From: Minisyncoccia bacterium
GTDB taxonomy: Bacteria; Patescibacteriota; Minisyncoccia; Phycocordibacterales; UBA918
Direction of reading: 5' to 3'
Assembly: GCA_041736805.1 (NCBI GenBank)
Contig: JBGSSW010000016.1
Span: 66,526 to 130,525 of the forward strand
Length of the DNA: 64,000 bases
Shown here piece after piece: positions 888-17,454 of this stretch. The stretch's first letter is position 1. Each line of letters begins with the position of its first letter. The notes below the pieces were generated by a model, which was not told the origin of the DNA, did no database searches, and saw nothing but the letters and a program-made list of their open reading frames with translations. A program made the translations under genes and the position numbers.

Positions 888-907
888 ACTAGGTACTATA
901 CGATTGA

Positions 908-1090
908 TTAATTTCCATTTACGATTTCCTTAATGTAGTCAGGTGCATTTGGGTCGGAATTCAATCTTTCTGCAATACCATAGAGAATCACAAACAAATC
1001 ACCCACGTGAGTGTTTGATTTGCTTTCAACTTCAGGAGTGTCGAAGCCAGTTTGTAGTTCTTGTTGGCGTTGTTTTTGTTTCCGACTCAT
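908..1090 (-). CDS. Small hypothetical protein (60 aa) immediately upstream of, and co-oriented with, the recombinase. A recombination directionality factor role is speculative.
   Basis: ORF track. Tight spacing with the recombinase gene. No recognisable motif. Confidence 0.3.
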   Translation of the reverse strand: MSRKQKQRQQELQTGFDTPEVESKSNTHVGDLFVILYGIAERLNSDPNAPDYIKEIVNGN

Positions 1091-1135
1091 ACTTATGATG
1101 AGCTTTTTGGGCTCATCTAAAGCATAAGTGGCAAC

Positions 1136-1954
1136 TTATAAAACGTCCTTTTTAAAGGATTCTATAGTCTCCAAAAGGAAACTATAGGACGGTTTAGGAC
1201 GAAACGATTTATTAACTTGGTTCGATTTAAGTCTTTCGTAACTTCTTTTAAGCATCTTCTCTGAGCAAAATAAGTTATCTATGTCGCTTTGTAAAACAGG
1301 GTTTTGGAAATGGACACTTTTTGCAGAAGCTATTGGAAAAAAGGCTTTACTAAGAGGTTTAATAAAACCATAGTTGTTTAGGGTCTTACGAACTGAAAAA
1401 GGTTCCCTCGTACCAGTTTTTTGCTTTATATAATTTAGGATATCAATTGTGGGGATGTCCTTGTTTGGATTTTTTAAAATATGTTGCCAAAAATGATAAG
1501 GCTGACTACCATCCTGTGGTTTAAGTAGTGTAAACTCATTATTAAAAACAATACCATCTTTAAAATTCATCGTTATTATGAACCGAGGAAACAACGAAAG
1601 GGGTACTACAATTTTAGTAAATTTTTGAAAGTTAATTGTAAAAGTTGCTATCGCACCGTAAATGATTTCATCATTATCATCTGGCATAGACACATCAAAA
1701 GTCTTCGTTCCAATTGCCAGCTTTGATACTGCCTGATGTGCTTCCAAAAACCGCAATACTGCATATTTTTCAGTGCCATCTTGTCCCTCGTTTCCACCAT
1801 CAACTTCACCCAAATACATTGAAAGCTCCGCTGACTTTGCGTCAACATTAACTGCTTTCTCTAATGCTAGAAAGACGTCACGTATGTGGCGAGAGAAGTT
1901 TTTTGGGTAAACTGTAATATCCTGCATATCATTAAGTATAATAGCAATTCTCAT
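1136..1954 (-). CDS. Hypothetical protein (272 aa), accessory/phage-like
   Basis: Long ORF co-oriented with the recombinase. Very low GC. No recognisable motif. Confidence 0.45.
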   Translation of the reverse strand: MRIAIILNDMQDITVYPKNFSRHIRDVFLALEKAVNVDAKSAELSMYLGEVDGGNEGQDGTEKYAVLRFLEAHQAVSKLAIGTKTFDVSMPDDNDEIIYGAIATFTINFQKFTKIVVPLSLFPRFIITMNFKDGIVFNNEFTLLKPQDGSQPYHFWQHILKNPNKDIPTIDILNYIKQKTGTREPFSVRKTLNNYGFIKPLSKAFFPIASAKSVHFQNPVLQSDIDNLFCSEKMLKRSYERLKSNQVNKSFRPKPSYSFLLETIESFKKDVL

Positions 1955-2279
1955 CGGACAAAGTTAGATGTTTAATGAACGTAATCCTGCTTATTACCCT
2001 GTGAATAACTATAATCGAAAAAAGTATTACTAGATTTAAGAATAATAGCCATATTTAATATAGCTATTTTAAGAATTTAATTACTAATTTTAAGAATGCA
2101 TTATAGAAGCAAATTCATAGTTTAAATAGTTATGCGAGTTACGTGAGTTTTTAGTTGAACTCTCCTCTTTGTATAGTGCGTTAAGGTGTTGGGTTGTGGC
2201 GACCAAATACAAAAATCTTATTGGATATGTCGCCACGCTAATAAGGTTTTTGTATTTACAACTAGCCCTCAACAACACT

Positions 2280-2738
2280 CAATCGTTTATCTGGGAATGA
2301 TAAACGTGCTCTTTTAATCCAGATGCTGGCACTGACTGCAACTTGTCACCCAGCGAAGCCTAGTGTGGAGGGGTGGATTTTACTACCTAGGCTTTCCCGT
2401 CATTGTCGGAAGTAAGCAAAGTCGATTATTAGTAACGCTTGCCAATGAGGGAACCAGAGACGAATTGTGACGATACTCAATCACCTCGGTAACGCAATAC
2501 CTGGACGAGGAAGTAGTCTCTTAATCCACCAAGCAGAATGGAACACTCACTTGTCTTGTCGCTGACCGTACTTACTTTGAATTAACAAGGTTGGAAGGAG
2601 AAATCCAAGGAGACGGAAGTACGAGAGAACACACCAAGTGCCGATAGTCATTCGAAAGGAGTTAAATTGTATCACTCATAATGCGACCGAATACCGCTCT
2701 TTAGCGTAAGGGAAAAAGCTTTACCACTTTTATCAACA
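2280..2738. ncRNA. Candidate structured noncoding RNA (~450 nt, ORF-free on both strands, GC about 48% within a ~30% GC neighbourhood). Family and strand unknown.
   Basis: No ORF of 60 aa or more on either strand between 2279 and 2738. There is an abrupt GC rise and many short complementary segments. I found no match to RNase P, tmRNA or tRNA consensus. Confidence 0.25.
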
Positions 2739-2937
2739 ATGTGGCGGAGCTTCGCTCCTAATTGCTATATATGTATGACAAAAAATAATGTAATAACAAT
2801 AATTAAAGTAAGTAATTTTTATTACCGTTTTTTGTTGTGTCTATCTATTTTATATAAACGTAGACAGCTATCCGATGCAATCAGTCGTTCACTAACGGTA
2901 TACACATTACAAATCAATTACGTAGAATCACGTATTT

Positions 2938-3534
2938 TTGCGTGTAAATTACAGTATGTTTAATTCACTTAACTTAAAAGAAATAACTGCAATCGAACTA
3001 AAATATTTAGGAAATACCAATGTTCAAATTGCTGAAAAAATTGACATCCCTGCACGCACTGTAGAGGGTTGGTTTATTAGTGGAGGTAAGCTTGAAGTCG
3101 AGTATCACGATTATTCAAAGCGTTTAAATAAATTACGTTTTGAAAACGTCTCTGAGCAAATTGCTTTAAACGACCAAGAAGTTTTGATTACCACTACAAA
3201 TGTAGTGCGTCACTTCGCTCGCAGACTACAACCAAGAGAAGTTACGCTAGTTCGTGAAGATGGTAATGCTGTGGTAGATGAAAACGGAAAAGCCAAAACT
3301 GTTTTGGTTGAACCAGACGCTCGTTTCACTATGAATGACTTTAAGACGGCTTGGCAGATACAACGCATTATGCAAGGCAAGCCAATTGACTACGTAAAGC
3401 AAGAAATTGAGACGACAAGCTTTGAACACGATGTGGTTATGAAAGAGCTTGGTTTGACAACAGAAGACTTCTCTGACGAAAGAATTGATGAAACAACCAA
3501 ACTGATCACGGACTATTTACTTAATTGTAAATAA
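2938..3534 (+). CDS. Hypothetical protein with a possible N-terminal HTH (phage-like); the true start may be the Met at 2956
   Basis: ORF track. The segment LNLKEITAIELKYLGNTNVQIAEKIDIPARTVEGW resembles a sigma-region-4/terminase-small-subunit type HTH. Confidence 0.45.
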   Translation: MRVNYSMFNSLNLKEITAIELKYLGNTNVQIAEKIDIPARTVEGWFISGGKLEVEYHDYSKRLNKLRFENVSEQIALNDQEVLITTTNVVRHFARRLQPREVTLVREDGNAVVDENGKAKTVLVEPDARFTMNDFKTAWQIQRIMQGKPIDYVKQEIETTSFEHDVVMKELGLTTEDFSDERIDETTKLITDYLLNCK

Positions 3535-3761
3535 TCTGCTTAGTTTGAGATTCTGCAATATCAATATATAATCTCTATACAACTGAATATAGACCTAACC
3601 CGTTAGTTTCGACTGACGGTATGGTTGAAAAACGCACGATACAAGAGACCCTGTCATATTAGGGCGTATCGTGCGTTGCCACTGGAAACGGTGGTAGGGG
3701 TTACCGAAAGGTGTCCTCCTAATGTGGCAGGTTTTGTTGTACCTGCTTCTAACTTTTAATT

Positions 3762-4274
3762 ATGACAAACATAAATGAAGCAAGGGCAGTCTGCCCAAAG
3801 TGTGCAGAAGATGTGAAGCCTGAAGCAAGTATTTGCAAACACTGCGGAAGTAAAATTACTCCAGTTTCCGCCGATAAAGTTAAGAAGCGAAGCGTCCCTG
3901 TTTTAAAGTGGTTTATTTTTATTTGTATAGCAGGAATTATAACGTCGTCAGTTATTTCAAGTACGAGCCAAATGAGTAGCCAATCTACGGCACCTGACCA
4001 CTGTTCTATGGCTTACGTAAAAAGCCAAAACTACGTCGAAGATGTTTTAAAGTCACCTAAGTCTGCAGACTTTCCAATGTTTGAATATACCGCTACCGAT
4101 ATTGGTGACGGTGGATGTGAAGTGAGTGGCTATGTTGATGCAGAAAATAGCTTTGGAGCTAACATTCGTAGCTACTGGACAACCACTGTTCGATTCAATG
4201 GTGGAAGTACAGGAGACTCACTGAACTGGACGCTCGAAAAAATGGTGGTAGATGGTGAAGTCGTATATCCATAG
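3762..4274 (+). CDS. Zinc-ribbon (CxxC-x15-CxxC) membrane-anchored protein with an extracytoplasmic domain
   Basis: CPKC...CKHCGSK near the N-terminus, one hydrophobic helix (VLKWFIFICIAGIITSSVI), then a Ser-rich linker. Confidence 0.5.
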   Translation: MTNINEARAVCPKCAEDVKPEASICKHCGSKITPVSADKVKKRSVPVLKWFIFICIAGIITSSVISSTSQMSSQSTAPDHCSMAYVKSQNYVEDVLKSPKSADFPMFEYTATDIGDGGCEVSGYVDAENSFGANIRSYWTTTVRFNGGSTGDSLNWTLEKMVVDGEVVYP

Positions 4275-4313
4275 CTCCTCACCAGTACAAACGGCCTACA
4301 AGGCAGATTTAGG

Positions 4314-4556
4314 CTAAATACGGCAGGCTACAACGGGTACTGACTGGTATTGTTTTGCTGTAAGTTCATTACTTTGGCCAGATAGGATATCTGCCAGTAT
4401 TTTACTCTCAAAAGGTAGAGTGGCTTCACCTGTAGTAGTTTTAATGTGGGTCACAAACGGAAAAGTGCTTCCGCTGATAGGAGTAGTACGAATTACCTCA
4501 ACTCCGTCAGTTAGGTATAAACATTGTTTTGTGGCTTTCTCAAATAGGCTTCGCAT
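4314..4556 (-). CDS. Hypothetical small protein (80 aa)
   Basis: ORF track only. Confidence 0.25.
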   Translation of the reverse strand: MRSLFEKATKQCLYLTDGVEVIRTTPISGSTFPFVTHIKTTTGEATLPFESKILADILSGQSNELTAKQYQSVPVVACRI

Positions 4557-4598
4557 ACTTAAATGCTAACACTTAATTTTGTTTATGTAGACTATAAG

Positions 4599-7283
4599 TT
4601 AACTCAAAATTGAGATGAGCCATTCGTAAGAAGCTTCACCTTGCTTTCTTTCAACATTATTCATTACACGCCCGTGCTTGACTGCATTTCTGTATTCCTT
4701 GAGTTGCAAGAAGTGCTTCTCGACTTCACCCCTAGAGCCAAAGACGCTCTCAAAAATATCCCAGTTTACAGATATAGTTTCTTGGTAATCCATTATATCG
4801 CAATAGTCAAAACGGTTTCTTGCACTAATAGGCTGACTTCTTTCTGCTGGGTGACGTTTAAATCTTTGCTCTAACTTTTGTTCAACACGTTGCTTTACAC
4901 CATTTGAAACTTTAGCGTCCCAATAATCAGCACCGAAAGCTTTACTCAAATGGGAATCAATAAAGTCTCTCAAATTTAATTCTAATTCATCAACTGCTGT
5001 TTCAGGTGCAGTTTCAAGAACTTCTTCGGTGTCAGGACTCAAGCCAATTTTGCTTCTAATTACCCTAATGATACTTTTTTCTCTTTCTTCGAGAAACCCA
5101 TCGAAGTTATCACTTTGAAGTAGAGCAAGTCCAACCGCACTAATTGTGTGCGACTCCAGTACTTCTGTAAGCGCCTGTTCATTGGATGAGTATTTGTCAG
5201 TTAAAAACTCATTTATGTAGACAGAAGGTACTTTATCCCTTTTTCTCATATTAGTTTCTTTTGACAACCAGGTCATATTAAGAACTGAATTAATATACGG
5301 ATGTTGCGAAAAACCAGCACTGTTAGACTTTGGGAAAATATGGTCTTTGTCATTACTTCTAGCCATCTCTAAAGCGTGTCCTGTTTCAAAATCTACAGCT
5401 CCAGCTAAAGCAATTAATGACATCACACCTTTGTATATTGCATTAGAATGGTTGTTTACCTCTTTTAAATCAAGATTTGAAAGGTCATTTCTGGCTTGTG
5501 TCACTACTTTAGGAATATTTTCTTCACCATTGAACCAATTCATAACCTCCTTATAGTCAGAAGTCATTTGAGTCTCTGCAGACGATGAGTAAGCGTTAGT
5601 AAAAATTGCTGACCAATACCACTGATCAATCTTTGACTGGCACAATAATCTGTCTGCTCTTGTGGCCGCTTCCATATTCAAAGCTGTGAGTACAGGAATC
5701 ATTGGAGAAAACGGCACCTCCTTATCATTTAATACACCGTAACCTGTACGTAAGTTTTCGAGCAAGTTAAAGGTTGATTCGAGATTTTCAACCACTTGAT
5801 TCCAGAGCGTGATAAATTCTTCAGCTGAAGATAGGGACAAGTTCTCGTATAAAGAAAGTAAATCTTTCTTCTTTGCTGAACTTGAGGGATGATGGATTAA
5901 TGAAAGGCACTGAAAAATGAACATCTTGGTTTTTTCAGACTTACAGTAGTTATTGATTCCTTCATAGTTCTCAAGTACCGATTCCCAGAGATTTCTCAAG
6001 TTGATGCCATTCCTAAGCAGTTTTGCGATTAGCAAATCAAATGTGCCAAGTGGTTTACCTTCAGTGTTAATTTTTTCAAAAATAACTGATACTTGTGCTA
6101 AGTCCATACTGCTAGGCAGAACAACAAACGGTATCTGAAAGCCTTGCCACATATGCCTGACTCTGGATTCAATCAATCTTTTTAGGTCTCTTAATTTCTC
6201 ATACGGTAAGTCAGCTTCAGTTGTATGTAAGTAGTCTTCAAGTCCGTCTAGCCATTCAAATGAATTTGAGAGCTTGTTAATTGGAAATAACAAACTTTCA
6301 TAGGTTTCAATGTTTGACAACTCTCTATCCTTCACAGTAATAATCCTCTCACTATTTTGTTCAAGAATAAAATTCTTAAAATCAATATAGTAATATGAAT
6401 TTTTAGAAGTACCCTTAAGAGGAAAATCGGGTGACTTAATCGCATAGTAAAGTGCGGTACAACGCTGTTGCCCATCCAGTATTATAAAATCAGTTCGACT
6501 CAATGAATTTGACGAACCTTGAATCGCAATCAACTCTAAAGGGGCTTGCTCATCTGATTCCCACAGTAAAAAGGCTCCGACATAGTAATCATTAAAGATT
6601 GATTCCAGAAGTGACCGCACGCTTTCTCTATTCCAATCAAAATATCTTTGGAAATTAGGAATCGCCCATCTGGTATCTAAATTTTCTATAATTCGTGCGA
6701 CATCAATTCTGTCCGGGCTACTTAAAGCGTGGGGAGAAAAACTGACAGTCGATAAATCTACTGATGTTACAAAATGCTTCAATCTTTCAGTTTCGAGTAC
6801 AGTGTCTACATCATAGTTTTCTGATGTAACAATTCTTTCAAAATCAGCAGAATTAATTTTCCTTATGCCACCCTGTAGATACGGCCCCCAAGAATAGGGA
6901 TTTTTGATAAATGACAAGTTGTTTAGTAGCGGTTTTATTGGCTTTGGTCTATCAAAAATTAATATGTCCGCTAAGTCCAGTCTGAACATATCCTCACTAC
7001 TAAAATAATTGTGAGAAGTATCACTTTCTCTATAAGCGGATGATGTGGCAGTAGCTGTACCAACAAAATGCTGATTTTCACCACCTAAGTAAAAAACAAT
7101 CTTGTCTCCAGGGACAATCTTAGCTCTTGCGGCTGTTCTAGGGTGTAAACCCCAAACACTCTTCGACATTAAATCAGTATAGATTTCAGATGCAGAAATC
7201 CTGTTGCCTGTACTGTCCTGATGCGACGTTATTATTGATATATAGTTACTCATAATGATGATTACTTTGAGTAAGCATATCAT
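4599..7283 (-). CDS. GmrSD-like type IV restriction endonuclease fusion: N-terminal EVE/PUA-like domain, DUF262 (DGQQR), DUF1524 (His-Me finger, DHIFP) and a C-terminal HEPN-like Rx4H motif. The probable true start is the Met at 7253.
   Basis: VWGLHPRTAARAKIVPGDKIVFYLGG...FVGTATATSSAY matches the EVE pattern (W.G....ARN....pGD...FY). IILDGQQRCTALYYAI is the DUF262 signature. DKDHIFPKS...N...L is DUF1524 HNH-like. The terminal LKEYRNAVKHGR is a HEPN Rx4-6H motif. Confidence 0.7.
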   Translation of the reverse strand: MICLLKVIIIMSNYISIITSHQDSTGNRISASEIYTDLMSKSVWGLHPRTAARAKIVPGDKIVFYLGGENQHFVGTATATSSAYRESDTSHNYFSSEDMFRLDLADILIFDRPKPIKPLLNNLSFIKNPYSWGPYLQGGIRKINSADFERIVTSENYDVDTVLETERLKHFVTSVDLSTVSFSPHALSSPDRIDVARIIENLDTRWAIPNFQRYFDWNRESVRSLLESIFNDYYVGAFLLWESDEQAPLELIAIQGSSNSLSRTDFIILDGQQRCTALYYAIKSPDFPLKGTSKNSYYYIDFKNFILEQNSERIITVKDRELSNIETYESLLFPINKLSNSFEWLDGLEDYLHTTEADLPYEKLRDLKRLIESRVRHMWQGFQIPFVVLPSSMDLAQVSVIFEKINTEGKPLGTFDLLIAKLLRNGINLRNLWESVLENYEGINNYCKSEKTKMFIFQCLSLIHHPSSSAKKKDLLSLYENLSLSSAEEFITLWNQVVENLESTFNLLENLRTGYGVLNDKEVPFSPMIPVLTALNMEAATRADRLLCQSKIDQWYWSAIFTNAYSSSAETQMTSDYKEVMNWFNGEENIPKVVTQARNDLSNLDLKEVNNHSNAIYKGVMSLIALAGAVDFETGHALEMARSNDKDHIFPKSNSAGFSQHPYINSVLNMTWLSKETNMRKRDKVPSVYINEFLTDKYSSNEQALTEVLESHTISAVGLALLQSDNFDGFLEEREKSIIRVIRSKIGLSPDTEEVLETAPETAVDELELNLRDFIDSHLSKAFGADYWDAKVSNGVKQRVEQKLEQRFKRHPAERSQPISARNRFDYCDIMDYQETISVNWDIFESVFGSRGEVEKHFLQLKEYRNAVKHGRVMNNVERKQGEASYEWLISILS

Positions 7284-7321
7284 TATAATTCATTATTTTC
7301 AGCTAAAATGATATAGTTTAA

Positions 7322-7939
7322 ATGACATTTATTTATATGGTTAAATACATAATTTTTCGATACCTAACTAACGCAGATTTTTTTAATATCTATAAACAAC
7401 CTGGTACGGAGTTAGGTGGTGGTGGTCAGGCTTATATTGATTTTCCTGCACAAGATGTATCTCTAGAGAAATGGGGTAAGTTTTTTGAAGACGCAAATAG
7501 TATTGTTTGTGACTCTGGAGAACAAGGCCCTATCTGGTATGTGCCACTAAATAGTATCGGTGTACAAGGTTCTCAAGAGGTAAAGATTTACCAGAGAAGA
7601 GCACAAAGTATATGCATTGCTTCACAACGAATTACTAGCACTAGAGAAAATCGAGTTAAGTCGTGGCATCCAGAAAATGGCTTTCCAGAACCTGCCGACC
7701 CATTAGAACGTAATCAACTTCCTCAGAATCTTCTTGTTTATCTACTTAGAACTAGCAACGATGAATTTTGGGCTGGATGGTCATTAAATCAAGTTCCTGC
7801 GAGAGACAATAATGCGATACAGCTAATTGCTGAAATGCACAATGAGGCTATGTCAGAAGGTCATTCTGGTTTTATTGAACCAACTGACACCCTACTGTTT
7901 GATTCAACTGATAAGGAAAAACCCTTCTTTACATCTTAA
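7322..7939 (+). CDS. Hypothetical protein (205 aa); candidate restriction endonuclease partner of the adjacent methyltransferases
   Basis: It lies between the type IV gene and the two methyltransferases, converging on them with an 11-bp overlap. It contains a possible D...EVK PD-(D/E)xK-like arrangement (CDSGEQG...SQEVKIY). The assignment rests mainly on genomic context. Confidence 0.4.
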   Translation: MTFIYMVKYIIFRYLTNADFFNIYKQPGTELGGGGQAYIDFPAQDVSLEKWGKFFEDANSIVCDSGEQGPIWYVPLNSIGVQGSQEVKIYQRRAQSICIASQRITSTRENRVKSWHPENGFPEPADPLERNQLPQNLLVYLLRTSNDEFWAGWSLNQVPARDNNAIQLIAEMHNEAMSEGHSGFIEPTDTLLFDSTDKEKPFFTS

Positions 7940-9005
7940 CCTCAATCAAATACTCAGTTAAGTTTTTACCAAGCTTGCTAGCGTTACTTTTAAATCGCTT
8001 ATGACTTATTTCCTCTAATGAAACTTCTCCGTATTTTTTTAATCCTACGAGTAACTCCTTTATCGGAATTAAACCATCTTCACTATAACTAATTAAAAAG
8101 CTATTGCATTTGACACCAGTCAAAATTTTATCAAAGGAGTCCCAAATTTTTGTTTTGGTGCAAAAATTTGAATATTGGTCTCGCCAAGGTCTTAGTCCAC
8201 TCACACCAATGGCTTGAGGGTCATCCTCCCGTGCCAACGTTTCTAGAATATGGTAGTTAGCCGCATATTGTCTTTTCATATATGGAGGGTCAATGTAACA
8301 AACACTGCACTGAATTGTATTTGCTAAATCTTCAGCATATCCCTTATAAACATTGTGCTTTGATAATTTTGAATCAGCAACAAAATTTGTTGCTATTGAC
8401 GGCTTTAAATACAGAACATCATTTGCTCGCCCAGTCAGCTTGGAAAGATAGTGACCGTAAGTTCCTGAAATATTTGCTACGTCATTTACCGCCAAGATTA
8501 AATCATTCAATAGTAGTGAATGCTCGATGTCATTAATTACTTTTTCTTGGTAAGCGTTTCTTATCCAATTTCTAATTGCATCAATTTTAGAAGCATTGTG
8601 TGGAGAAAAGTAGTTACGTGGCCCATCACCAGAGCTAGGCTTTCCTTCAATACAAAACTCTTTATAAAAATACTTTTTTTGTGGCTTAAGATTGTTTAGA
8701 TAAAGTAAAACATCTACATAGCCGTTTTCATTGTCATTTTTATTCAGCTTTTGATTAATAAATTTATTGGCTTTTTTAAAAGTAGGAGTCTTATCAATTA
8801 AAAGCACTACACGAGCGTGATGGTATGAATATGTCATAACATCTGTCGCAATTACAGAAAAACCCCGCTCTTTTAAAGCTTTAGAAACTGTAGCTGTACC
8901 ACACATCAAATCACAAACCACGTCTCCTTCCTTTGTAATTGATTCAATTTTGTCTACAATTTTGTCTACAATTTTACTTTTAGAACCAATATACCTATGT
9001 CCCAT
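7929..9005 (-). CDS. DNA methyltransferase (N6-adenine or N4-cytosine) with motif I FxGxG-like near the N-terminus and DPPY motif IV near the C-terminus (alpha-class order)
   Basis: VVCDLMCGTATVS (AdoMet-binding motif) ... CYIDPPYMKRQY (DPPY catalytic motif). Confidence 0.8.
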   Translation of the reverse strand: MGHRYIGSKSKIVDKIVDKIESITKEGDVVCDLMCGTATVSKALKERGFSVIATDVMTYSYHHARVVLLIDKTPTFKKANKFINQKLNKNDNENGYVDVLLYLNNLKPQKKYFYKEFCIEGKPSSGDGPRNYFSPHNASKIDAIRNWIRNAYQEKVINDIEHSLLLNDLILAVNDVANISGTYGHYLSKLTGRANDVLYLKPSIATNFVADSKLSKHNVYKGYAEDLANTIQCSVCYIDPPYMKRQYAANYHILETLAREDDPQAIGVSGLRPWRDQYSNFCTKTKIWDSFDKILTGVKCNSFLISYSEDGLIPIKELLVGLKKYGEVSLEEISHKRFKSNASKLGKNLTEYLIEVKM

Positions 9006-9006
9006 T

Positions 9007-10746
9007 TTAAAATATGTCGTTAACCGAAACGTTAGTCAGTGCTTTAATAGGAAGCAGGCTATCAACTTTATTAAAAGTTTCGTATATAACCCCGTAATCC
9101 TTTTTGGTTAGACCAAACAAAGTTGCCACTAGACGCTCTATTTTAGCATCAATGGACTTTGGTACAACCTTATTGTTTTCAAGGTATGGCTTTAAAGTTG
9201 AGACAATTGCCTTTGAAATCTTTCCAAAAGATGCAGATTTTATATCTGGGAATGGTAAGTTAAGAATTTGACCTTGTGTTAAATAAGGATGAGAGCGCCA
9301 TTCAGTTTCACCGTATTTTTTGAGTAAAAAATAATACATCGCTCTTGAGTTAATTACACTCAACACTAACTCAATTGGAGCCGTCTCACTTGCCGGACTT
9401 TCTTTAGGTCTAAACATATACACAACCTGATTTGTGAGCGATTGTGTGTAATCAATAGATGCTGTAATTCCAACGCCAGTTTTGCGGACAATAATTTTTG
9501 GTTCGTAGTAAACACTAATATCCTTGTAGTTTATTCCTTTATTATCGACAGAAATCCAGTACTCAGAAGATATTGAGTAGCGTCGAATACTCTCACCTAC
9601 TAGGAGGGGCTTTGATCCTTTAAATTTTTTCTTACTAACAATATTTTGAACTTCGACTTTAGATAAGTCTGAATTTTTGGCGCAATGGTTACACTTAGGG
9701 CGCAGACTGTTTGGGTATGGGTTCCACTGACTACAGTAGTCACACTTATATACCTTCCCTGATTTAGACAATTCTACCCCTCTTGATGAAGATACGAAGT
9801 CACCAATAACTTTCTTACTAGAAGACAGCTTTTGTATTACCTTTAATTCATTGTCCTTTGTGTCTATATCGAAAAGGTATAGACCAGTTTCAGAAAAACG
9901 CTTTTGAAAAACTTTGTGTGACAACTTAGAGTTTGCATCCTCGTATGATAATTCATTCTTGAGAATTAGCTTTCTAGTTTCAAGATTCAACCGCATACAC
10001 TCAACTTCATTCTCAGCTGAAGGTACAGTGTTTTTAAATATTATTATCGTACATCCTCTACTAACGTCTTTAAATATTTTTTCACCAAGTCGTGCTATAT
10101 ATTTAATTTCTGTATTTTCAGTAAGTAATTTCCTAAGAACCTTTTTTTCGTGACTAAAAATTGAATCTGGAATTATGAAGGCACAATATCCACCTTTACG
10201 AACAATTCTTAGTGATAGCTCAATAAATAAATCAGATGAGTCAAACTGCCCTTTATTTAAAGTGTAGTCGCTGTGATTTAATTCCTTAACATAATGACTC
10301 ATATCCGCTCCCCAGGGAGGGTTGGCAACCAAAACATCAAAACCATCTTGTGCATTAAAATGACTCTGAAGTGACTTGATATCAAATATACTCAGTCTAC
10401 TTTCATAAGGAAATAAGGCATTTATTTTCAGAGTGTTTTTAGCAGAAATTAACTTAGAAGTGGTTTCCACTGCGTATTTATCAATATCTGTACCATACAA
10501 ATCAAAATGATTTGAAAGTTGATTTCGAGACAAGTATCTATTTACCGAGTGAAGTAATTCACCCTCTCCACAAGCGGGGTCAATTATTTTGAGACTATCG
10601 ACTTGTCTGTAAGCGCCTCTAGAAATATCTTCAGATAAAAAGTGTAGTACTTTACTGACCAGAAAATCCGCAAGGGGTTTTGGTGTATATACAATACCTA
10701 AATCACTTTTATACTGTGTTTTTTTATTTTTAGTGACTAAAACCAT
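9007..10746 (-). CDS. N6-adenine DNA methyltransferase, gamma-class (Eco57I/TaqI-like, NPPW motif) with a C-terminal target-recognition region containing a Cys4 zinc ribbon
   Basis: IIDPACGEGELL (motif I) ... LVANPPWGADMSHY (motif IV NPPW) ... CDYCSQW...CNHCAKN. Confidence 0.8.
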   Translation of the reverse strand: MVLVTKNKKTQYKSDLGIVYTPKPLADFLVSKVLHFLSEDISRGAYRQVDSLKIIDPACGEGELLHSVNRYLSRNQLSNHFDLYGTDIDKYAVETTSKLISAKNTLKINALFPYESRLSIFDIKSLQSHFNAQDGFDVLVANPPWGADMSHYVKELNHSDYTLNKGQFDSSDLFIELSLRIVRKGGYCAFIIPDSIFSHEKKVLRKLLTENTEIKYIARLGEKIFKDVSRGCTIIIFKNTVPSAENEVECMRLNLETRKLILKNELSYEDANSKLSHKVFQKRFSETGLYLFDIDTKDNELKVIQKLSSSKKVIGDFVSSSRGVELSKSGKVYKCDYCSQWNPYPNSLRPKCNHCAKNSDLSKVEVQNIVSKKKFKGSKPLLVGESIRRYSISSEYWISVDNKGINYKDISVYYEPKIIVRKTGVGITASIDYTQSLTNQVVYMFRPKESPASETAPIELVLSVINSRAMYYFLLKKYGETEWRSHPYLTQGQILNLPFPDIKSASFGKISKAIVSTLKPYLENNKVVPKSIDAKIERLVATLFGLTKKDYGVIYETFNKVDSLLPIKALTNVSVNDIF

Positions 10747-11410
10747 TACTTAATTTTAGCACGTCACTCATTCATTTTTTGTAGTTATCCAAAATTTTAG
10801 TATTGTAAATTAAGGATATTATTAGTATAGGTATCTACATTTGCTTCATCTTAAACTTTGTAAGTGACCACTCATTCTTAGAACGTCCATTGCCTGGCTT
10901 CTTTCCAGTAAACGCTCCCATTCTACCCAGTTTACGTTTATAAAGGTGCTTAGATTGCGGAGCAAATCAAAAAACGCCTTAGGGTGTTTTTTGTTTGTGA
11001 CGCGGGAGAACGTGACTAAATGTCACGTTCGTTAGGATTCGAAGCCGGATTGAGCTAGATTTGAGCTTGCGAAAAATCTAGCCAATTTGGTTACTGGTCG
11101 TGTAACGACCGAAATTCCTACCGCGGAGCAAACTTGACACATCCTTTTGATAAGATAATGTTCTTATGGGTTCGGCATCGACCGGACATCTCTAGGAAGG
11201 TGTAATGAATCATATTCGTATAGTCACCCAGCACATGTTGTGCATCGGAGCACCTGTAGTCGGGGCTCTCGCTCTCACCCAAATCAGTCTTTGGCTAGGT
11301 AATGGTCCAGTGGTACTAAATCCATTTGTCTGTGCCCTAGCCCTGGTTGCCTCGCCGTTTCTATACATGATGGGAGTGCGAATGAAGGGCGGGGCCTGAA
11401 TGTTGTTACT

Positions 11411-11455
11411 ACCGCTTGTACAGACACCGCGTCTGTATGAGCGGTTTCTGTTTTT
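11411..11455 (+). terminator. Rho-independent terminator-like hairpin followed by a T-run
   Basis: accgcttgtacagacaccgcgtctgtatgagcggt forms an extended stem of about 13 bp and is followed by ttctgttttt. Confidence 0.45.
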
Positions 11456-11501
11456 ATACACAAGCGGTTCGAACATCCTTCACCCAGCGGAGCAAAATAG
11501 G
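11448..11501. repeat. Left copy of an ~55-bp imperfect direct repeat (putative att-like boundary)
   Basis: tttttatacacaagcggttcgaacatccttcacccagcggagcaaaa aligns with 16781-16836 (ttattttatacaaaaaacgcagcggttcgagcatcacacacctagcggagtaaa). Partial copies occur at 11117-11146 and 17117-17132. Confidence 0.5.
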
Positions 11502-11870
11502 ATAACCCTTCACTTCAGTCATGAGGTCGAAGGTTTTTGCCTAATGTGGTAACTTTCATCGGCATCAACTAAATTCTCTAGTTGAAGACTTAATGACTCG
11601 CTGTCTGTGTCTTAATTCTTTCTCTTTCTTGTCATATTCATCCTGAGCAATTCTCCACTTTGGTACGGAGTTTCTCTTTACATTCTAATTCTGAACTTAT
11701 CTATGAAAACAAATTCAGTTACCTTCTCTAACAGGGCGTTTTTCCATTAGACTTAAGGTTTTAATACCACTTGCCATTTAAATGATTCCAACTTTTATGA
11801 CTTACAAATCTTTAATTTGTTAATGTGGATAATAAACAATTTATACTTTAATAATTGATATTATAAAGTT

Positions 11871-11898
11871 TGATTAATTGTTCATTAACTTAATTAAC
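11871..11898. promoter_or_regulatory. AT-rich TTAATTAA-containing operator-like motif upstream of the ClpP-like gene, followed by RBS GAGGTG at 11899-11904
   Basis: tgattaattgttcattaacttaattaac. A related motif is repeated upstream of the 13262 gene. Confidence 0.3.
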
Positions 11899-11909
11899 GA
11901 GGTGTACAA

Positions 11910-12575
11910 ATGGTCTCTAAAATTAGACTTGGAAAACTGGATGAATTTGAACGTGCTACATTACTAATGGAAAGAGGTATTGACTTGGGTCGTCGAAAGA
12001 TGATTGTCGGTGTCCCATACATAAGTAACAACAGTGAAAGTGATGTAGGGTTCCCCCTTGTAGCAAACTTCTTTACCGGCCTCCATGCTCTGGAACACTT
12101 TTATGAGCCAAAAGCTGGAGAAACTCCAAGAGAGCATATCGATATTGAGTTTGTCAGCTACGGAGGAGACTTGCATGCATCGTTCGGAATATTCGATCGA
12201 ATCACCATGGTGTCTGTCCCCGTACATATCTATGTCTATGGGCCATGCATGAGTGCCGGTAGCTTGATTCTCCAAGCAGCGACCAAACGTTTTATGTCAC
12301 CAAAATCAAGCTTGATGCTTCATTATGGTTTTACTGCAGATGAGGGTACTTCGGACCCCAAACGTCTTGAAGAGGTACTTCGTTATCACAAGAAGCTCAT
12401 GGATACACTAGTCAGTATATATCTATCTAGTTGTAACAAAAATATTCTCACTGAAGAAATACTTCGAAACAAGATTCTTCCGATTGAGACATATCTAGAT
12501 GCAGAGTCTTGTCTAAAGTACGGACTTACCGATGAAATAATCGAGCCAGTAATTCCAGGATTAGCTAGTTGCTAG
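11910..12575 (+). CDS. ClpP-family (S14) serine peptidase, orphan and divergent, with an intact Ser-His-Asp triad
   Basis: IDIEFVSYGGDLHASFGIFDRITMVSVPVHIYVYGPCMSAGSLILQAATKRFMSPKSSLMLHYG aligns with the E. coli ClpP segment [66 protein letters not shown]. The C-terminal YGLTDEII aligns with YGLVDSIL. Confidence 0.75.
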   Translation: MVSKIRLGKLDEFERATLLMERGIDLGRRKMIVGVPYISNNSESDVGFPLVANFFTGLHALEHFYEPKAGETPREHIDIEFVSYGGDLHASFGIFDRITMVSVPVHIYVYGPCMSAGSLILQAATKRFMSPKSSLMLHYGFTADEGTSDPKRLEEVLRYHKKLMDTLVSIYLSSCNKNILTEEILRNKILPIETYLDAESCLKYGLTDEIIEPVIPGLASC

Positions 12576-12608
12576 CAACAAAAAGGGTGGCGTCTGTCAC
12601 CCTTTTAC

Positions 12609-13085
12609 TTATTTATTCTTTAATAGACTCTCATTTTTAATAACCTTCTTCAAAACAGAAACAAAATTTTCATACTCATCTGAATCAAGATTTTTTAGAA
12701 GGGGCTCAAAAAAGACTAAAAACTGTTGTTGTGAGAGAGATAGAATCTTTTTACCCTCTTTTGTTATACACATACTTTTTTTTCGTTTATCTCCACCATT
12801 TGCAATGATTGAAATAAGACCACGATTCTCCAATTTAGTTCCTATGACAGTTAAAAATGAATCCTGAATTCCTAACTCTTCAGCAACATCTGAAAAAGAC
12901 ACGAAGTCACCTTTATGATCGAGAAAACCAAGAAGAATCCAGTCTCCAGTATTGAGCTCAAATACTCTTAGAGCTCTTGTCATGTAGCTTTTTGTAATTC
13001 TATGAAATTTACTTTGTAACAAAGCGACTTTTGTTGCCTTTTGTATAAAAGGTATTTTCAAGGAAAACTTATTGATCATAAGCAA
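12609..13085 (-). CDS. MarR-family winged-helix transcriptional regulator, divergent from the 13262 operon
   Basis: Size is 158 aa. It has the central wHTH pattern (FSDVAEELGIQDSFLTVIGTKLENRGLISI...GDKRKK) and is divergently arranged with a shared intergenic region carrying repeated motifs. Confidence 0.6.
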   Translation of the reverse strand: MLMINKFSLKIPFIQKATKVALLQSKFHRITKSYMTRALRVFELNTGDWILLGFLDHKGDFVSFSDVAEELGIQDSFLTVIGTKLENRGLISIIANGGDKRKKSMCITKEGKKILSLSQQQFLVFFEPLLKNLDSDEYENFVSVLKKVIKNESLLKNK

Positions 13086-13170
13086 TATTGTATCTCAAAA
13101 TAATTACATAGCAAATTTTTTCCACATCTGAGATTTGTTAATAGATAGTTAAGTTAGTAAACTATAAAGT

Positions 13171-13223
13171 AGATTAATTAAGTTAATGAATAATTAAGTT
13201 AATTAATTGTTAGTTCCTTGACA
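13171..13223. promoter_or_regulatory. Divergent promoter/operator region: direct repeats of taattaagttaat plus a TTGACA -35-like hexamer (13218-13223)
   Basis: agattaattaagttaatgaataattaagttaattaattgttagttccttgaca lies between the divergent MarR gene and the 665-aa gene. Confidence 0.3.
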
Positions 13224-13261
13224 TTTATCTTCCCGCTTACCTTTACTAAAGGAATTTTATC

Positions 13262-15259
13262 ATGGCAAAGAATGTTAAAGTCCGGAAAGCTGTCTTGGTT
13301 GACAGGTCTAAAATCAATGATTTCATCAAAAGTAATCGCCAACTTTCAAGAAAGGAACTCGCTGAAAAATGTGGCATCAGTAAGAATGCCGTGAAGGAAC
13401 GTGAACATCTAATGAACCTGACTAGGGAATGGAAAATGGCAGAAAAAGCACAGCCCGAAGACAGGCTTTCTCAGCGACAGGAGTTTGCCAGCATCTGGAA
13501 CGATGCCCGAACATACCCGGCTAAGTATGACCTGGAGCGCGCTCTAGGTAGTAACTTTCGCGCTCTGCAGGCAAGGGCGCGTCGCTACACACAGTTTCGG
13601 GTCAACCAGCCAACCCTTGGTTTACCAGAACTGATTTGGCGACAACAAATTACCGGGGGTATGATTGCGGTACCAGAAGGCGTCATACGTCAATTGGATG
13701 AATTTCGAGTCACTCCGGAGTTACTTGACGCTCTTTCTAAAGGGAAAATTTCCAAGGTACTACTGACCGGCTACCAGTTCGGTGCCAGCTTGAACCAAAA
13801 CTTCTGGAAATCCCTGAAACATTACGAAACAGAACGTGGTACTCCCCTACTGGTCTTGCCAATCAAGTACGGCCCAATCAAAACTGTTGCCCATAAAGGT
13901 ACCGGTAATCGTATCTTGACCAGTACCTTCCCGGCCGAGCTTCATGGTCACATGATTTTCGAGAATCAAGTCATATTCAATGATGAACTTGAGATCAATG
14001 TGATGCGCATGCGCCCGACATTGGTTACCTTTCTCACCCCTAGTGTCTGTCAAAGGGGTGGTACGCGGTCGCAGATATTCGCAGCGCCCAAACTAGAGCT
14101 CAAGCACCAAATGCGGATTGGACGACATCAACCCAAGGCCCTTATGACAACTGGGGCAGTAAGTTACCCAAGCTACTCAGTCGATAACCTCGGTCAACAA
14201 GATCGAACAGGGGAAATTGCCGCTCAAGAGCATGAATTTGCAGCCGTGGTGATTGAGCTTGGCAAAAAAGGCTTTCACTTCCGCCAACTCCTAGCCAATA
14301 AACGTGGTGAGTTCTACGACATCAACATCAATAAGGGTGGGGCCGACCTCTTCACACCAAATGGGGTTGAGCACCGTCCAGACGACGTTGATGCGCTTTA
14401 TTGCGGTGATCTGCATATCGGGATTACCGATCCCCAGGTAGAGGAAGCCACGTTCGAGAAGAATGGTATTGTCTCCATCCTTAAGCCAAAAAATATCGTG
14501 TTTGGGGACGATATCGATGGTTGGAGTATCAACCATTATGACGAAGAGCATCAGGGCGCTAGGCGGTCTTGGAAAGCTCAACACGGTCTGGATAGTCTAG
14601 AACGTGAACTCGAGATGGCAGTGGCAAAGCATAAGTGGATACATGCCAAAGTTACTTCCTACGTACCAAAAATCAAGATACATCGCATTGCTGCCAATCA
14701 CCCCGAGTTTGTGTCGGAATACATCGAAAGTAGAAAATGGGCAATGCGAGGGCATGACGTCAACGCCGTAATCGGGGCTGAACTATTCTTGGCCATGCGA
14801 GAAAGCATCAGAAAGCCAAAGCTGAAGCTACTCAGGTCTGGTGGATTTGGAACAGAGTTTTTGACTCCCAAAGACTTGGACGTCAGCCCCATCGACCCAG
14901 TTGTTTGGTACTTCCGCAAGCATTGTCCAGAGATAATTTCCTACGAACGAAAAGATCAACTGTTCTTCCCTAAAGGAGTCAAGCATCCGATACTTTGTTC
15001 ACTTCACGGTGACAAAGGTAGCCGTGGTGGCAAAACGCGAAGCACAAAAGAATTTCAAAACGTGGGGAGACGGACACTGCTCGGCCATAACCATTCTGCC
15101 GAAATCAATGGCATAGCTTGGCGTGTTGGTACGTCGACCGGACGAACCCAACACTACGTGATGTTCCCAGGCACAAACTGGTCACAGTCACACGCTGCCA
15201 TCTTCAAGAATGGTCAGCGACAACTGTTAAACATCATCATGGGTGAGTGGCACGGGTAA
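13262..15259 (+). CDS. Large protein (665 aa) with an N-terminal HTH-like segment and a C-terminal region carrying calcineurin-like metallophosphoesterase-type motifs in canonical order; function unknown
   Basis: The N-terminus has RQLSRKELAEKCGISKNAVKERE (HTH-like). The C-terminal half has YCGDLHIG, VFGDDIDGW, IAANHPE, LHGDKGSRGG and LLGHNHS, resembling the PPP/MPP motifs GDxHG, GDxxDRG, GNHE, HGG-RG and GHxH. GC is higher (about 50%) than the surrounding DNA. Confidence 0.55.
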   Translation: MAKNVKVRKAVLVDRSKINDFIKSNRQLSRKELAEKCGISKNAVKEREHLMNLTREWKMAEKAQPEDRLSQRQEFASIWNDARTYPAKYDLERALGSNFRALQARARRYTQFRVNQPTLGLPELIWRQQITGGMIAVPEGVIRQLDEFRVTPELLDALSKGKISKVLLTGYQFGASLNQNFWKSLKHYETERGTPLLVLPIKYGPIKTVAHKGTGNRILTSTFPAELHGHMIFENQVIFNDELEINVMRMRPTLVTFLTPSVCQRGGTRSQIFAAPKLELKHQMRIGRHQPKALMTTGAVSYPSYSVDNLGQQDRTGEIAAQEHEFAAVVIELGKKGFHFRQLLANKRGEFYDININKGGADLFTPNGVEHRPDDVDALYCGDLHIGITDPQVEEATFEKNGIVSILKPKNIVFGDDIDGWSINHYDEEHQGARRSWKAQHGLDSLERELEMAVAKHKWIHAKVTSYVPKIKIHRIAANHPEFVSEYIESRKWAMRGHDVNAVIGAELFLAMRESIRKPKLKLLRSGGFGTEFLTPKDLDVSPIDPVVWYFRKHCPEIISYERKDQLFFPKGVKHPILCSLHGDKGSRGGKTRSTKEFQNVGRRTLLGHNHSAEINGIAWRVGTSTGRTQHYVMFPGTNWSQSHAAIFKNGQRQLLNIIMGEWHG

Positions 15260-15391
15260 AATCAATAGTAATGATTTTGCTGGTTTATGAGCACTTATTG
15301 TAAACCAGCATATTTTTCAGATTACGAATTAATTTTCGCAATTTGAAAGATATTAGTTCTTTGACATAACCTAACAGTAAAGGAGAAATTT

Positions 15392-15712
15392 GTGAATAAA
15401 TTCAATTTACGTCGTCTATTTGAAAATATGATTAGCTTTGTTGTGCTCGATACAAACATCATACTAAAGGAACTAATTGTCCCCGGGTACTACATTGCAA
15501 AATCAAAAACACTGCGAATTTCATCAACAAAAGATGGTGCTGATTTGGTGAAAATTACCTACGCCGCCTTGATTCATCATCTCCATCCTAAAACCTCCCT
15601 GGAGACTTGTCTGGAGTACGCGGGGGAAATGACCTTAAAAATAAACAAGTCAGAGATGCAGTGGGCAATAAAATATATTAGGGACCATACAATAAAACTT
15701 TCCATTGTTTGA
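15392..15712 (+). CDS. Hypothetical protein (106 aa); its stop overlaps the next gene's start by 4 nt, so it is in the operon
   Basis: ORF track. ATGA overlap with the start of the 15709 gene. Confidence 0.4.
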   Translation: MNKFNLRRLFENMISFVVLDTNIILKELIVPGYYIAKSKTLRISSTKDGADLVKITYAALIHHLHPKTSLETCLEYAGEMTLKINKSEMQWAIKYIRDHTIKLSIV

Positions 15713-16251
15713 AACGGAGAATCGAAATGAAACCTGTAGATATTGATACCGTTCGGAAAATTCCCCTTAAGTATAAAACAATCTATCTAGCTGGAGGACT
15801 TTTCAATGCTGGAGAGCAGGTTCATAACCTGCTATTACGCCTGTCTCTAAGTAAGTACGGGTTCAAGGTCATACTTCCACAAATTGAGGCTGAGAAATTC
15901 AAAAGAGATGACGGTACTTTGGATATGCAAAAAGTTGTCGAGGATTGCTACTCTCATGTGGAGGATCCGCTAACTCTTGTAGTTGCCAACATGGATGGAG
16001 TGGATGCCGAATCTGGGACCGTCGCTGAGGTAGCAACTGCTCATGCCGTCAATGGTTACGCCATCATGTACCGAACAGACTTTCGTACTTGCCCAGAACA
16101 TGAGGCTGGAGTAAATGCGATGTTTCGATATCTAAAGCCCTCCATCATTTACTGCCCTTTTCACCTGAGCTCTATTTATGAAGTAGAAGACAACTACGAC
16201 AAACTGGCGCTGAGGATTGTCGAGACAATCATAACGAAACTTCCTAAGTAA
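15709..16251 (+). CDS. Nucleoside 2-deoxyribosyltransferase-like (NDT/DNPH1/Rcl fold) protein
   Basis: IYLAGGLFNAGEQ (YLAGPFF-like N-terminal motif) and VVANMDGVDAESGTVAEVATAHAVNGYAI (D.DSGTxxExG catalytic-Glu motif of the PF05014 family). Confidence 0.7.
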   Translation: MKRRIEMKPVDIDTVRKIPLKYKTIYLAGGLFNAGEQVHNLLLRLSLSKYGFKVILPQIEAEKFKRDDGTLDMQKVVEDCYSHVEDPLTLVVANMDGVDAESGTVAEVATAHAVNGYAIMYRTDFRTCPEHEAGVNAMFRYLKPSIIYCPFHLSSIYEVEDNYDKLALRIVETIITKLPK

Positions 16252-16270
16252 CATGAGGCGGAGTCCGTTC

Positions 16271-16304
16271 ACCCCTGTACTAATTTAGTACAGGGTTTGT
16301 TTTT
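16271..16304 (+). terminator. Rho-independent terminator of the 13262-16251 operon
   Basis: cccctgtac-taattta-gtacaggg followed by tttgttttt. Confidence 0.65.
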
Positions 16305-16759
16305 GATTAATTATTTTTTAAAATAAAAACTGATTTTAATTACCTTTTATACTTACTTTCTTTTAAGTAGTAACCTCATCAAGAAAGCAGGCTGGAGATT
16401 TATTGTAGACTCTAACAGTTCTTTCCTGAAACCGGGTAATGTGCAAGCACATTACCCGCATATATTGACACTGGGTAAACATAAGTACGCTGTTCGTAAT
16501 TTCAAGCGAAAAAGGGTCTCGTATCTGGAGCCCAGACTTCGTAGAGGCAAACCAAGTAATCCAGGACGCTACCCAAATGCCGACGGTCGCGTGCGACATT
16601 GGTTCCGATGCCATTCATGTCCGCGGAGAAGACGCAAACGGTCGTTTCTTGGTCAAGACGTTCTACAACTCAAAAAAGTGATTCGCGGCCGAGATGACTA
16701 AATGCACAGGTAGAACAGACCGCCACTGCGGGCGGAAGAAAGGACAACTGTCCCGACTT

Positions 16760-16788
16760 CCCCACTTGGTGGGCGTTTATTTATTTTA
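16760..16788 (+). terminator. Terminator-like hairpin with a T-run inside the noncoding block, immediately before the right repeat copy
   Basis: ccccacttggtgggcg followed by tttatttatttt. Confidence 0.45.
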
Positions 16789-16836
16789 TACAAAAAACGC
16801 AGCGGTTCGAGCATCACACACCTAGCGGAGTAAATC
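16781..16836. repeat. Right copy of the ~55-bp imperfect direct repeat (see 11448-11501)
   Basis: ttattttatacaaaaaacgcagcggttcgagcatcacacacctagcggagtaaatc. It shares tttatacaMaa, gcggttcgaRcatc and ccNagcggagYaaa blocks with the left copy. Confidence 0.5.
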
Positions 16837-17454
16837 AAAAATGTGTATTGATTGTGTAATAATCAATATTACTGATCGCAAAGTACAGAAATGACCTGGT
16901 TGTAAAATAACTTAACTACTCACCCAAATTACTATATACTAGTGACCATGACACGAATAATTGCATCAAGCCCAAAAAAGAATACAAAAACACGTCCTTA
17001 TAAATCACCAAAGCGTTTAGCAGCAAAGAAGGAAATGCTTGCAAAAAAGTCGGGCAAAAAAGGAAGATAATAGAATATTTAAACGACTACTTCACAACTC
17101 ACTATTAAACTAAGGGGGTTCGAACGTCCTTCTTCCTACAGAAGCTGTCCACTTTGTCGCTATTTTTTCCTAGCGTCAAAATAGCTGGCAAAGCCTTGCG
17201 AAATGCTCCCAGCATTTCTCACCCAGTGGGGCAGAGAAAAATAACCATGATAAACATGGTTATTTTTTATTCAGAGTTAATACCCCGGGAGGACGCGTTC
17301 GAACTTTTGCTTGACTTTATGATTATTTTAATGTGTAATAAACTACGAAACGGGTTTACGCTTACCCACTCACAATTAAGCGAGTTCCCTCTAAATAGAG
17401 CTGCTGCTTTGAAACCCTATTAACCTGTAATATAATAATCTTAATAACTAAGAT

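Follow-up and report, generated by a model that had tools for sequence, protein, structure and literature searches.

Conserved 28-nucleotide repeats as probable att-type junctions of a tRNA-Asn-anchored integration hot spot in Patescibacteria

We analyzed a 64,000-nucleotide (nt) window from a Minisyncoccia bacterium (Patescibacteriota; contig JBGSSW010000016.1, positions 66,526 to 130,525), which carries copies of a 28-nt repeat (hereafter the 28-mer) between 10.9 and 17.3 kb. From left to right, the locus comprises an intact large serine recombinase (LSR) gene, three-fifths of which (the 5' part; 1..887, minus strand) lie in the window, and its cargo (888..10877), a decayed junction named E0, a tRNA-like structured RNA gene that we call X, a small cassette, repeat copy A, an older cargo reaching to repeat copy B, a second small cassette and a composite junction named CD. 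The rest of the window is ordinary chromosome, encoding an F-type ATP synthase, HisRS and a PcrA-type helicase. We propose that the repeats are probably att-type junctions of an integration hot spot, which is anchored on tRNA-Asn and has grown by the successive arrival of LSR islands.

Site A (11466-11493, plus strand) reads GGTTCGAACATCCTTCACCCAGCGGAGC and matches the family consensus, GGTTCGAAC(A/G)TCCTCCACCCAGCGGAGC, at 27 of 28 positions, while site B (16804-16831, plus strand) is a decayed copy, GGTTCGAGCATCACACACCTAGCGGAGT, with 22 of 28 matches. The core of A is preceded by TTTTTATACACAAGC at 11451-11465 and that of B by TTATTTTATACAAAAAACGCAGC. The two sites lie on the same strand, agree at 28 of 34 core bases and have the upstream TTTTATACA in common, with a 6-nt indel between. 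A terminator scan detected a terminator-like hairpin followed by a T-run ahead of each copy, at 11411-11445 for A and at 16761-16773 for B. Both the two long copies and the preceding terminators claimed in the original prediction, made from the bare sequence, are therefore present.

Self-comparison of the whole window by BLAST retrieves the A/B pair with a borderline score (E=0.08) that one unrelated pair equals, and the terminator T-run makes up part of the shared stretch, as would be the case if A and B were unrelated, T-rich post-terminator regions resembling each other by chance. Since this within-window match is weak, we sought significance outside the window. A hidden Markov model (HMM) built solely from the copies of other genomes detects site A (E=4e-14), site B (E=6.4e-6) and a fragment at 17117-17131 (E=2.8e-3), and yields no further significant match in the 64 kb. 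The probability of a chance likeness is next to nil and we count that explanation as refuted: sequence comparison confirms A and B as true copies of one conserved 28-mer.

The partial copies proposed earlier fared unequally. The one at 17117-17132 is real and corresponds to the 5' part of a split copy, whereas 11117-11132 (CCTACCGCGGAGCAAA) is the 3' acceptor strand of X and no 28-mer copy; the acacatcctt tail attributed to the motif looks coincidental. The palindrome GTTCGAAC, thought to be contained in or to abut every copy, occurs in A, in the 17117 fragment and at 17297-17304, but B reads GTTCGAGC; GGTTCGAAC alone is not enriched in the window. Other identities for the repeats were considered and discarded: A and B have no convincing reading frame in common, ARAGORN finds no tRNA or tmRNA gene in the window, the sites match no Rfam family, and a DnaA-box cluster or origin finds little in the mild enrichment of TTATNCACA and the absence of a skew switch.

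Scanning with the pattern GGTTCGANCNTCNNNCACCNAGCGGAG recovered the motif from nine species-representative genomes, eight of which are Patescibacteria of several classes, and a slightly looser version matched 61 metagenome contigs; the scan of viral contigs gave no match. The motif-bearing genomes, together with the best homologs, were also our basis for assigning the window to Patescibacteria. A phage origin was rejected given this absence and the lack of a close viral relative of the A1-like protein encoded between A and B. An HMM census counted 122 copies, spaced at a median of 842 bp, in 71 sources (numbers prefixed with L designate the loci or contigs collected for comparison). Thirty loci hold multiple copies, from two to eleven each, and none of them mixes strands; this strict co-orientation speaks against a palindromic CG crossover usable in both orientations. 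Nor do the copies resemble repetitive extragenic palindromic (REP) sequences or miniature inverted-repeat transposable elements, which are scattered in both orientations. They are confined to 10.9-17.3 kb here and are clustered and co-oriented in arrays behind tRNA-Asn elsewhere, so the REP-like dispersal that had been named as evidence against the recombination-site reading was not observed. A literature search on the motif, or on attC in Patescibacteria, returned nothing relevant.

All-against-all BLAST of the loci identified nine groups of contigs, 88-99.9% identical, in which homology continues through the 28-mer and stops at its 3' edge. Because homology is lost at the 28-mer in all nine groups, the 28-mer is a recombination junction, in line with the attL/attR-like sites, or duplicated recombinase target, initially postulated. 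The variable positions 10, 14 and 16 of the 28-mer track the downstream partner in four or five groups, which would place the exchange in or just before GGTTCGAAC, a position consistent with the data. The converse case is provided by L040 and L056-1508, which differ upstream, are identical from GGTTCGAAC to GTTCGAACCTGGTGTTGCA and then diverge again.

The arrays are anchored on a tRNA gene. In 13 loci, the 28-mers are preceded by a tRNA-Asn(GTT) that ARAGORN finds on their own strand, and in L065 the tRNA-Asn is followed by the array of eleven copies. A public Logan contig runs 630 bp to the left of our window and ends with ...GCTCCGCGGGTAGGATTCGAACCTACGA, the reverse complement of the T-arm and acceptor strand of tRNA-Asn; the tRNA 3' end thus occupies the contig end, with the repeats co-oriented downstream, as in the 13 other loci. 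The small gene predicted at the target is this tRNA-Asn, about 0.6 kb left of the window, whose 3' end overlaps the last LSR codons. Its description as terminator-ended did not hold, as the hairpins and T-runs before the copies terminate the preceding cassette and are not part of the target gene. An identical tRNA-Asn, preceded by an identical 20 nt, has three different continuations, namely other DNA in L021, X in L035 and L078, and an LSR island in L066.

The 28-mer resembles tRNA-Asn from the T-loop to the 3' end (compare GGTTCGAATCCTGCCGNCGGAGC in the tRNA). The sequence of the tRNA is GGTTCGAATCCTACCCGCGGAGC and that of the 28-mer is GGTTCGAACATCCTTCACCCAGCGGAGC, the latter being 5 nt longer, and real tRNA-Asn genes obtain no score with the 28-mer HMM. 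On these alignments, the repeat is a conserved pseudo-tRNA end and not a true copy of the tRNA 3' part, whereas the 3' end of X does match the tRNA. Group I introns occupy the anticodon loop of tRNA-Asn genes that are LSR targets in L082 (5528-5773) and L084 (5537-5772), and also occur in L010 (540-867) and L013 (3666-3902); ARAGORN misses these genes because the introns interrupt them.

The LSR gene encodes 500 amino acids (aa), the first 295 of which correspond to window positions 887-3, and the remainder lies together with the tRNA-Asn 3' end within the 0-630 bp to the left. The full gene on the Logan contig specifies Resolvase (PF00239), Recombinase (PF07508) and Zn_ribbon_recom (PF13408) domains, and its last codons and stop overlap the tRNA-Asn 3' end. 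An equivalent overlap is found in all four homologs that we fetched (48-55% identity, from unrelated samples), two of which adjoin an intron-bearing tRNA-Asn, and this supports the idea that the recombinase at the left edge of the window is the relevant enzyme. More distant LSR genes, or their remnants, also abut 28-mers convergently in L041, L061 and L076/L044, and tRNA-Asn in L066 and L072. We assigned 227 de-duplicated neighboring open reading frames (ORFs) to Pfam families in two batches and listed the 25 most frequent families of each. Recombinase, Zn_ribbon_recom and Resolvase are the most recurrent families of the first batch (the 115 largest ORFs), and no tyrosine recombinase is among the 25 listed in either batch. 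We infer that the LSR catalyzes the insertions.

A second, decayed LSR lies next to site A. Using tblastn, we detected at 11487-11654 (minus strand) a pseudogene remnant of an LSR C-terminus that abuts and overlaps the site. Its segment KTFDLMTEVKGYPILLR aligns with KPFDTMLDVKGYPILLR of the L083 LSR (aa 476-492; 76% identity, E=3.6e-4), and two further segments are colinear with aa 412-431 and aa 396-427 of that protein. At the nucleotide level, GGAGCAAAATAGGATAACCCTTCAC recurs unchanged at the tRNA-Asn|LSR junction of L083. The position of this remnant directly after site A identifies the A–B segment as an older, decayed LSR island. As the remnant follows A in the configuration of an intact tRNA-Asn|LSR junction, it also sustains the successive insertion that had been suggested from the repeats. 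A recombinase is thereby found at the element end and next to a junction both at tRNA-Asn, which the intact gene overlaps, and at site A. On this comparison, A is the attL-like junction, accompanied by a decayed integrase, and B is the distal, attR-like junction of the same island. The hairpin downstream of site A had at one stage been taken for the 5' half of X, a reading withdrawn upon its identification as the LSR C-terminal remnant.

X is a 132-nt gene located between E0 and the 64-aa ORF (10999..11130, plus strand; nhmmer E=9e-29). From 5' to 3', it folds as an acceptor-like closing stem, a 7-bp hairpin and a T-stem-like helix (AGGA/TCCT) around TTCGAA, within which a long hairpin and a UGUAA-loop hairpin are accommodated. 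Its 3' end, TCCTACCGCGGAGCA, nearly equals that of the tRNA-Asn of this genome. The loci contain 66 relatives of X, some of them in tandem, and its acceptor strands match the neighboring tRNA, which is Asn in most loci and Gln in L024. Among 30 distinct copies, 84.5% of cells are paired compared with 65% in shuffles, and the covariation score is 0.484, against 0.176 in shuffles (no shuffle out of 500 reached it) and no more than 0.141 after sliding the partners. X matches no family of Rfam 15, either in the window or in the loci. This new structured RNA may act as a functional RNA, as an attachment-site scaffold or as both. Tandem X-like RNAs, up to five in 1.4 kb with a terminator hairpin between each, are found in L031 (970-2336), L067, L024 and L064.

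The strong covariation of X, whose G-U pairs lie on the plus strand, would also suit a view of the repeats as expressed RNA or "punctuation" modules, that is, a small RNA or a terminator combined with a promoter-proximal element, with the breakpoints produced by ordinary homologous recombination. Conservation of the 28-mer starts sharply at GG, with a weak TATACA box 6-11 nt upstream; most copies are then followed by an A-tract/hairpin/U-tract terminator, and some carry TTGACA 5 nt after GGAGC. However, the region upstream of the 28-mer contains only a weak T-rich/TATACA/ACA signal (TTTTATACAACACA), in which the box misses the conserved final T of a -10 element and no -35 signal is seen, and a stretch of 28 nt is poorly suited to RecA-dependent exchange. 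The anchoring on tRNA-Asn, the strict co-orientation, the LSR–tRNA overlap and the LSR remnant at A would all be left unexplained, and we regard this explanation as quite improbable.

Further junctions flank the A–B island, and small cassettes lie between them. The decayed junction E0 (10878..10992, plus strand) begins with TTAGAACGTCC..., contains internal insertions and ends with ...GCGGAGCAAATC; its decayed copy spans 10878-10968 and is followed by a terminator hairpin at 10969-10992. E0 is alignable with the split copy at 17117-17236, and its GCGGAGCAAATCAAAAA is also present after site B. The first small cassette, between X and site A, comprises a 64-aa hydrophobic ORF (11205..11399, plus strand), which has no family match, and the terminator at 11411-11445. 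The second comprises a 40-aa lysine/arginine-rich ORF (16948..17070, plus strand) and recurs in other arrays, with tblastn identities of 87% in L057 and 76% in L078 and further matches in L077 and L037.

The composite junction CD (17117..17304, plus strand) is closely similar to L056 site 705. It consists of the 5' part of the 28-mer (17117-17132), an insert of about 85 nt, the 3' part TCACCCAGTGGGGCAGAG (17219-17236), a terminator hairpin (17237-17268) and an inverse tRNA-like module, ATACCCCGGGAGGACGCGTTCGAAC (17280-17304); in its minimum-free-energy fold, 17117-17129 pairs with 17292-17304. Many junctions share this composition, in which the 28-mer and a terminator hairpin are followed by X or by a shortened inverse module ending with GTTCGAACC, the latter being the case here at 17280-17304. 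In inverted orientation, the CD insert (17133-17200) is similar to the middle part of X (nhmmer match of the X HMM at 17197-17117, minus strand, E=2.9e-4), and this inverted X-like insert hints at inversions between TTCGAA-containing sites.

The layout of these junctions recalls integrons, in which co-oriented imperfect-palindrome attC sites alternate with small, diverse cassettes and the array grows from one primary site. One could accordingly envision an integron-like platform in which the 28-mer, the terminator hairpin and the inverse module (or X) together form an attC-like site, small cassettes lacking an integrase are captured and shuffled in trans, and the LSR islands are just one kind of passenger. 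As many as 11 sites, all in one orientation and a median of 842 bp apart, separate diverse small ORFs, the sites are imperfect palindromes of roughly 100 nt whose inverse ends (GGTTCGAAC...GTTCGAACC) are conserved and whose center varies, the same cassette appears in different arrays (the 40-aa ORF; L040 vs L056), and the arrays begin at a single primary site, tRNA-Asn. The consensus boxes of attC are RYYYAAC (R'') and GTTRRRY (R'). The ends GGTTCGAAC/GTTCGAACC miss this consensus, agreeing with it at AAC/GTT alone, and no IntI-type tyrosine recombinase is found among the families listed for the 227 neighboring ORFs or in the window region, two observations on which we rejected an integron as such. 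The cassettes, moreover, seem to carry promoters and terminators of their own, the sites mimic a tRNA, and the A–B unit is demonstrably a decayed LSR island. We therefore consider the integron-like platform unlikely.

The explanation that we favor, and hold to be likely, treats the repeats as att-type junctions of a tRNA-Asn-anchored hot spot. LSR islands would integrate beside either the 3' part of tRNA-Asn or its 28-nt mimic, which covers the T-loop (GGTTCGAA) through to the acceptor end (...GGAGC), and each arrival would displace earlier material outward from the tRNA. Two or more insertions of this kind are recorded in the window, namely a recent island with the intact LSR and restriction/defense cargo, and the older A–B island, whose LSR has decayed to the 170-bp remnant beside A with its cargo surviving; the integrase-less cassettes with the 64-aa and 40-aa ORFs, together with X, are located between the further junctions E0 and CD. 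We infer that the crossover falls within GGTTCGAAC, that the insertions occurred in this order and that the sites are still active.

Several observations weigh against this explanation. Serine integrases normally leave a shared core of 2 bp, so that a 28-bp direct repeat with a weak upstream consensus is not expected, and A and B indeed share the whole 28-nt motif and the upstream TTTTATACA rather than a short core only. Positions 1-9 of the motif were fixed by the search pattern, which makes the placement of the crossover consistent with the data and not proven. A simple origin of the repeat as a displaced tRNA fragment fails because the 28-mer is 5 nt longer and tRNA-Asn genes have no HMM score. 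Most array cassettes are smaller than 1 kb and devoid of any recombinase. We found no excision circle and no directionality factor, nor did we find an empty site for this genome, the flanking proteins occurring only on contigs of the same population or in unrelated contexts. Finally, relatives that carry the cassette without repeats, which the original prediction had cited as potential counterevidence, do exist for the ClpP/A1-like cargo, those of the A1-like cargo being distant. The repeats are missing from six homologous loci and are thus not intrinsic to the ClpP/MarR/A1-like cargo; since these relatives lack them, we assign the repeats to the integration platform and not to that cargo.

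The A–B island and its neighbors share features with classical large serine integrase elements (phiC31, Bxb1, SPbeta, SCCmec ccr), including the resolvase, recombinase and zinc-ribbon domains, a recombinase gene at one junction and cargo genes. Those elements use protein-coding or intergenic targets, and their attL and attR share the central dinucleotide only, whereas here a tRNA T-arm, or its mimic, is the target and the repeat common to the junctions is 28 nt long. The asn tDNA hot spots of Klebsiella are reportedly tRNA-anchored islands as well. Another parallel is offered by the tycheposons of Prochlorococcus, in which 910 of 937 elements have a tyrosine recombinase and the remaining 27 an LSR (bioRxiv 10.1101/2020.12.28.424599). 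As in tycheposons, the island lies beside a tRNA gene, incoming elements push older ones deeper, the cargo serves defense and niche functions, partial tRNA-like repeats and fragmented integrases are scattered along the locus, and an LSR is used, as it is by a minority of tycheposons. Unlike in tycheposons, the repeat is a 28-nt pseudo-tRNA end found across classes of Patescibacteria instead of a copy of the tRNA 3' end, many units are sub-kilobase and integrase-less, the sites are accompanied by the covarying tRNA-like RNA X, and the only recurrent recombinase is the LSR. The locus is therefore of a known kind, tRNA-anchored islands built by successive integration, and is unusual in its serine integrase, its conserved tRNA mimic, its integron-like arrays and its new RNA.

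Patescibacteria have tiny genomes, and the ways in which they gain genes are little known. Together with its 70 relatives, this locus shows one conserved hot spot behind tRNA-Asn, where defense islands and very small cassettes accumulate and are exchanged. Should the sites be active, the 28-mer would provide a sequence handle on the flexible gene pool of uncultivated Patescibacteria, the LSRs a family of tRNA-T-arm-specific serine integrases for study, and X an additional tRNA-like structured RNA outside Rfam. More speculatively, and with considerable doubt, the hot spot may represent a phylum-wide, integron-like gene-capture platform based on tRNA mimicry, in which the 28-mer and X would serve as reusable sites, the LSRs would insert both islands and, in trans, sub-kilobase cassettes, and the tRNA would be kept intact.

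The newer LSR island would span window positions -615 to approximately 10.9 kb, with its right end at the decayed junction E0 (10878-10968). Pfam and PADLOC annotation of its cargo (888..10877) identified 60-aa and 272-aa genes, a LOOT RNA, a Zn-ribbon protein, a GmrSD/HEPN nuclease, and Dam-type and Eco57I-type methyltransferases. LOOT and Eco57I-type methylases lie at matching relative positions in homologous LSR islands. The LOOT RNA (RF03000, 73 bits) maps to 3592-3716 on the plus strand and is similarly positioned in two of four homologous islands (L082 1868-1980, L083 1659-1788); this orphan metagenomic RNA may be a component of tRNA-Asn-targeting elements.

The cargo of the older island (11910..16251), annotated with Pfam and PHROG, encodes a ClpP-like protease, a MarR regulator on the minus strand, a phage T5 A1-like protein of 665 aa, another protein of 106 aa and a nucleoside 2-deoxyribosyltransferase-like (NDT-like) protein. 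Its G+C content is 41-49%, compared with 33-38% in the flanks, and the MarR, A1-like and NDT-like module recurs in other Patescibacteria in other contexts. The 665-aa protein (13262-15259, plus strand) matches PHROG 1745, "DNA transfer protein" (phage T5 A1-like), with E=1e-61, and its helix-turn-helix N-terminus is a separate ORF of 104-107 aa in relatives. The A1-like gene is kept together with the MarR and deoxyribosyltransferase-like genes in many Patescibacteria chromosomes and has no PADLOC match; the module may act in defense or DNA degradation as an uncharacterized system.

The island also contains a 24-nt inverted repeat, TTAATTGTTCATTAACTTAATTAA, 96% complementary between 11874-11897 and 13174-13197. 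One copy lies just 5' of the ClpP-like gene and the other in the divergent MarR/A1-like intergenic region, which contains more copies of TTAATTAAGTTAAT. They probably serve as MarR operators that connect the two operons. Farther on, at the island's distal end, about 400 bp (16363-16760) show no convincing ORF and no Rfam match, have a G+C content of about 50% in a 37% G+C genome and form several G+C-rich hairpins; this segment could be a pseudogene or an unknown RNA.

Immediately after the last junction, ORFs of 231 and 133 aa (17455-18536) overlap by 16 nt and together correspond to a single membrane protein of about 355 aa in about 200 homologs, many of them from outside Patescibacteria, so that the pair is apparently one frameshifted gene. 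Near the right end of the window lie two sets of direct repeats, at 61097-61237/61337-61475 (141 nt, 89% identity) and 62571-62647/62688-62764 (77 nt, 77%); no self-match elsewhere in the 64 kb is as strong, and neither set is related to sites A and B.

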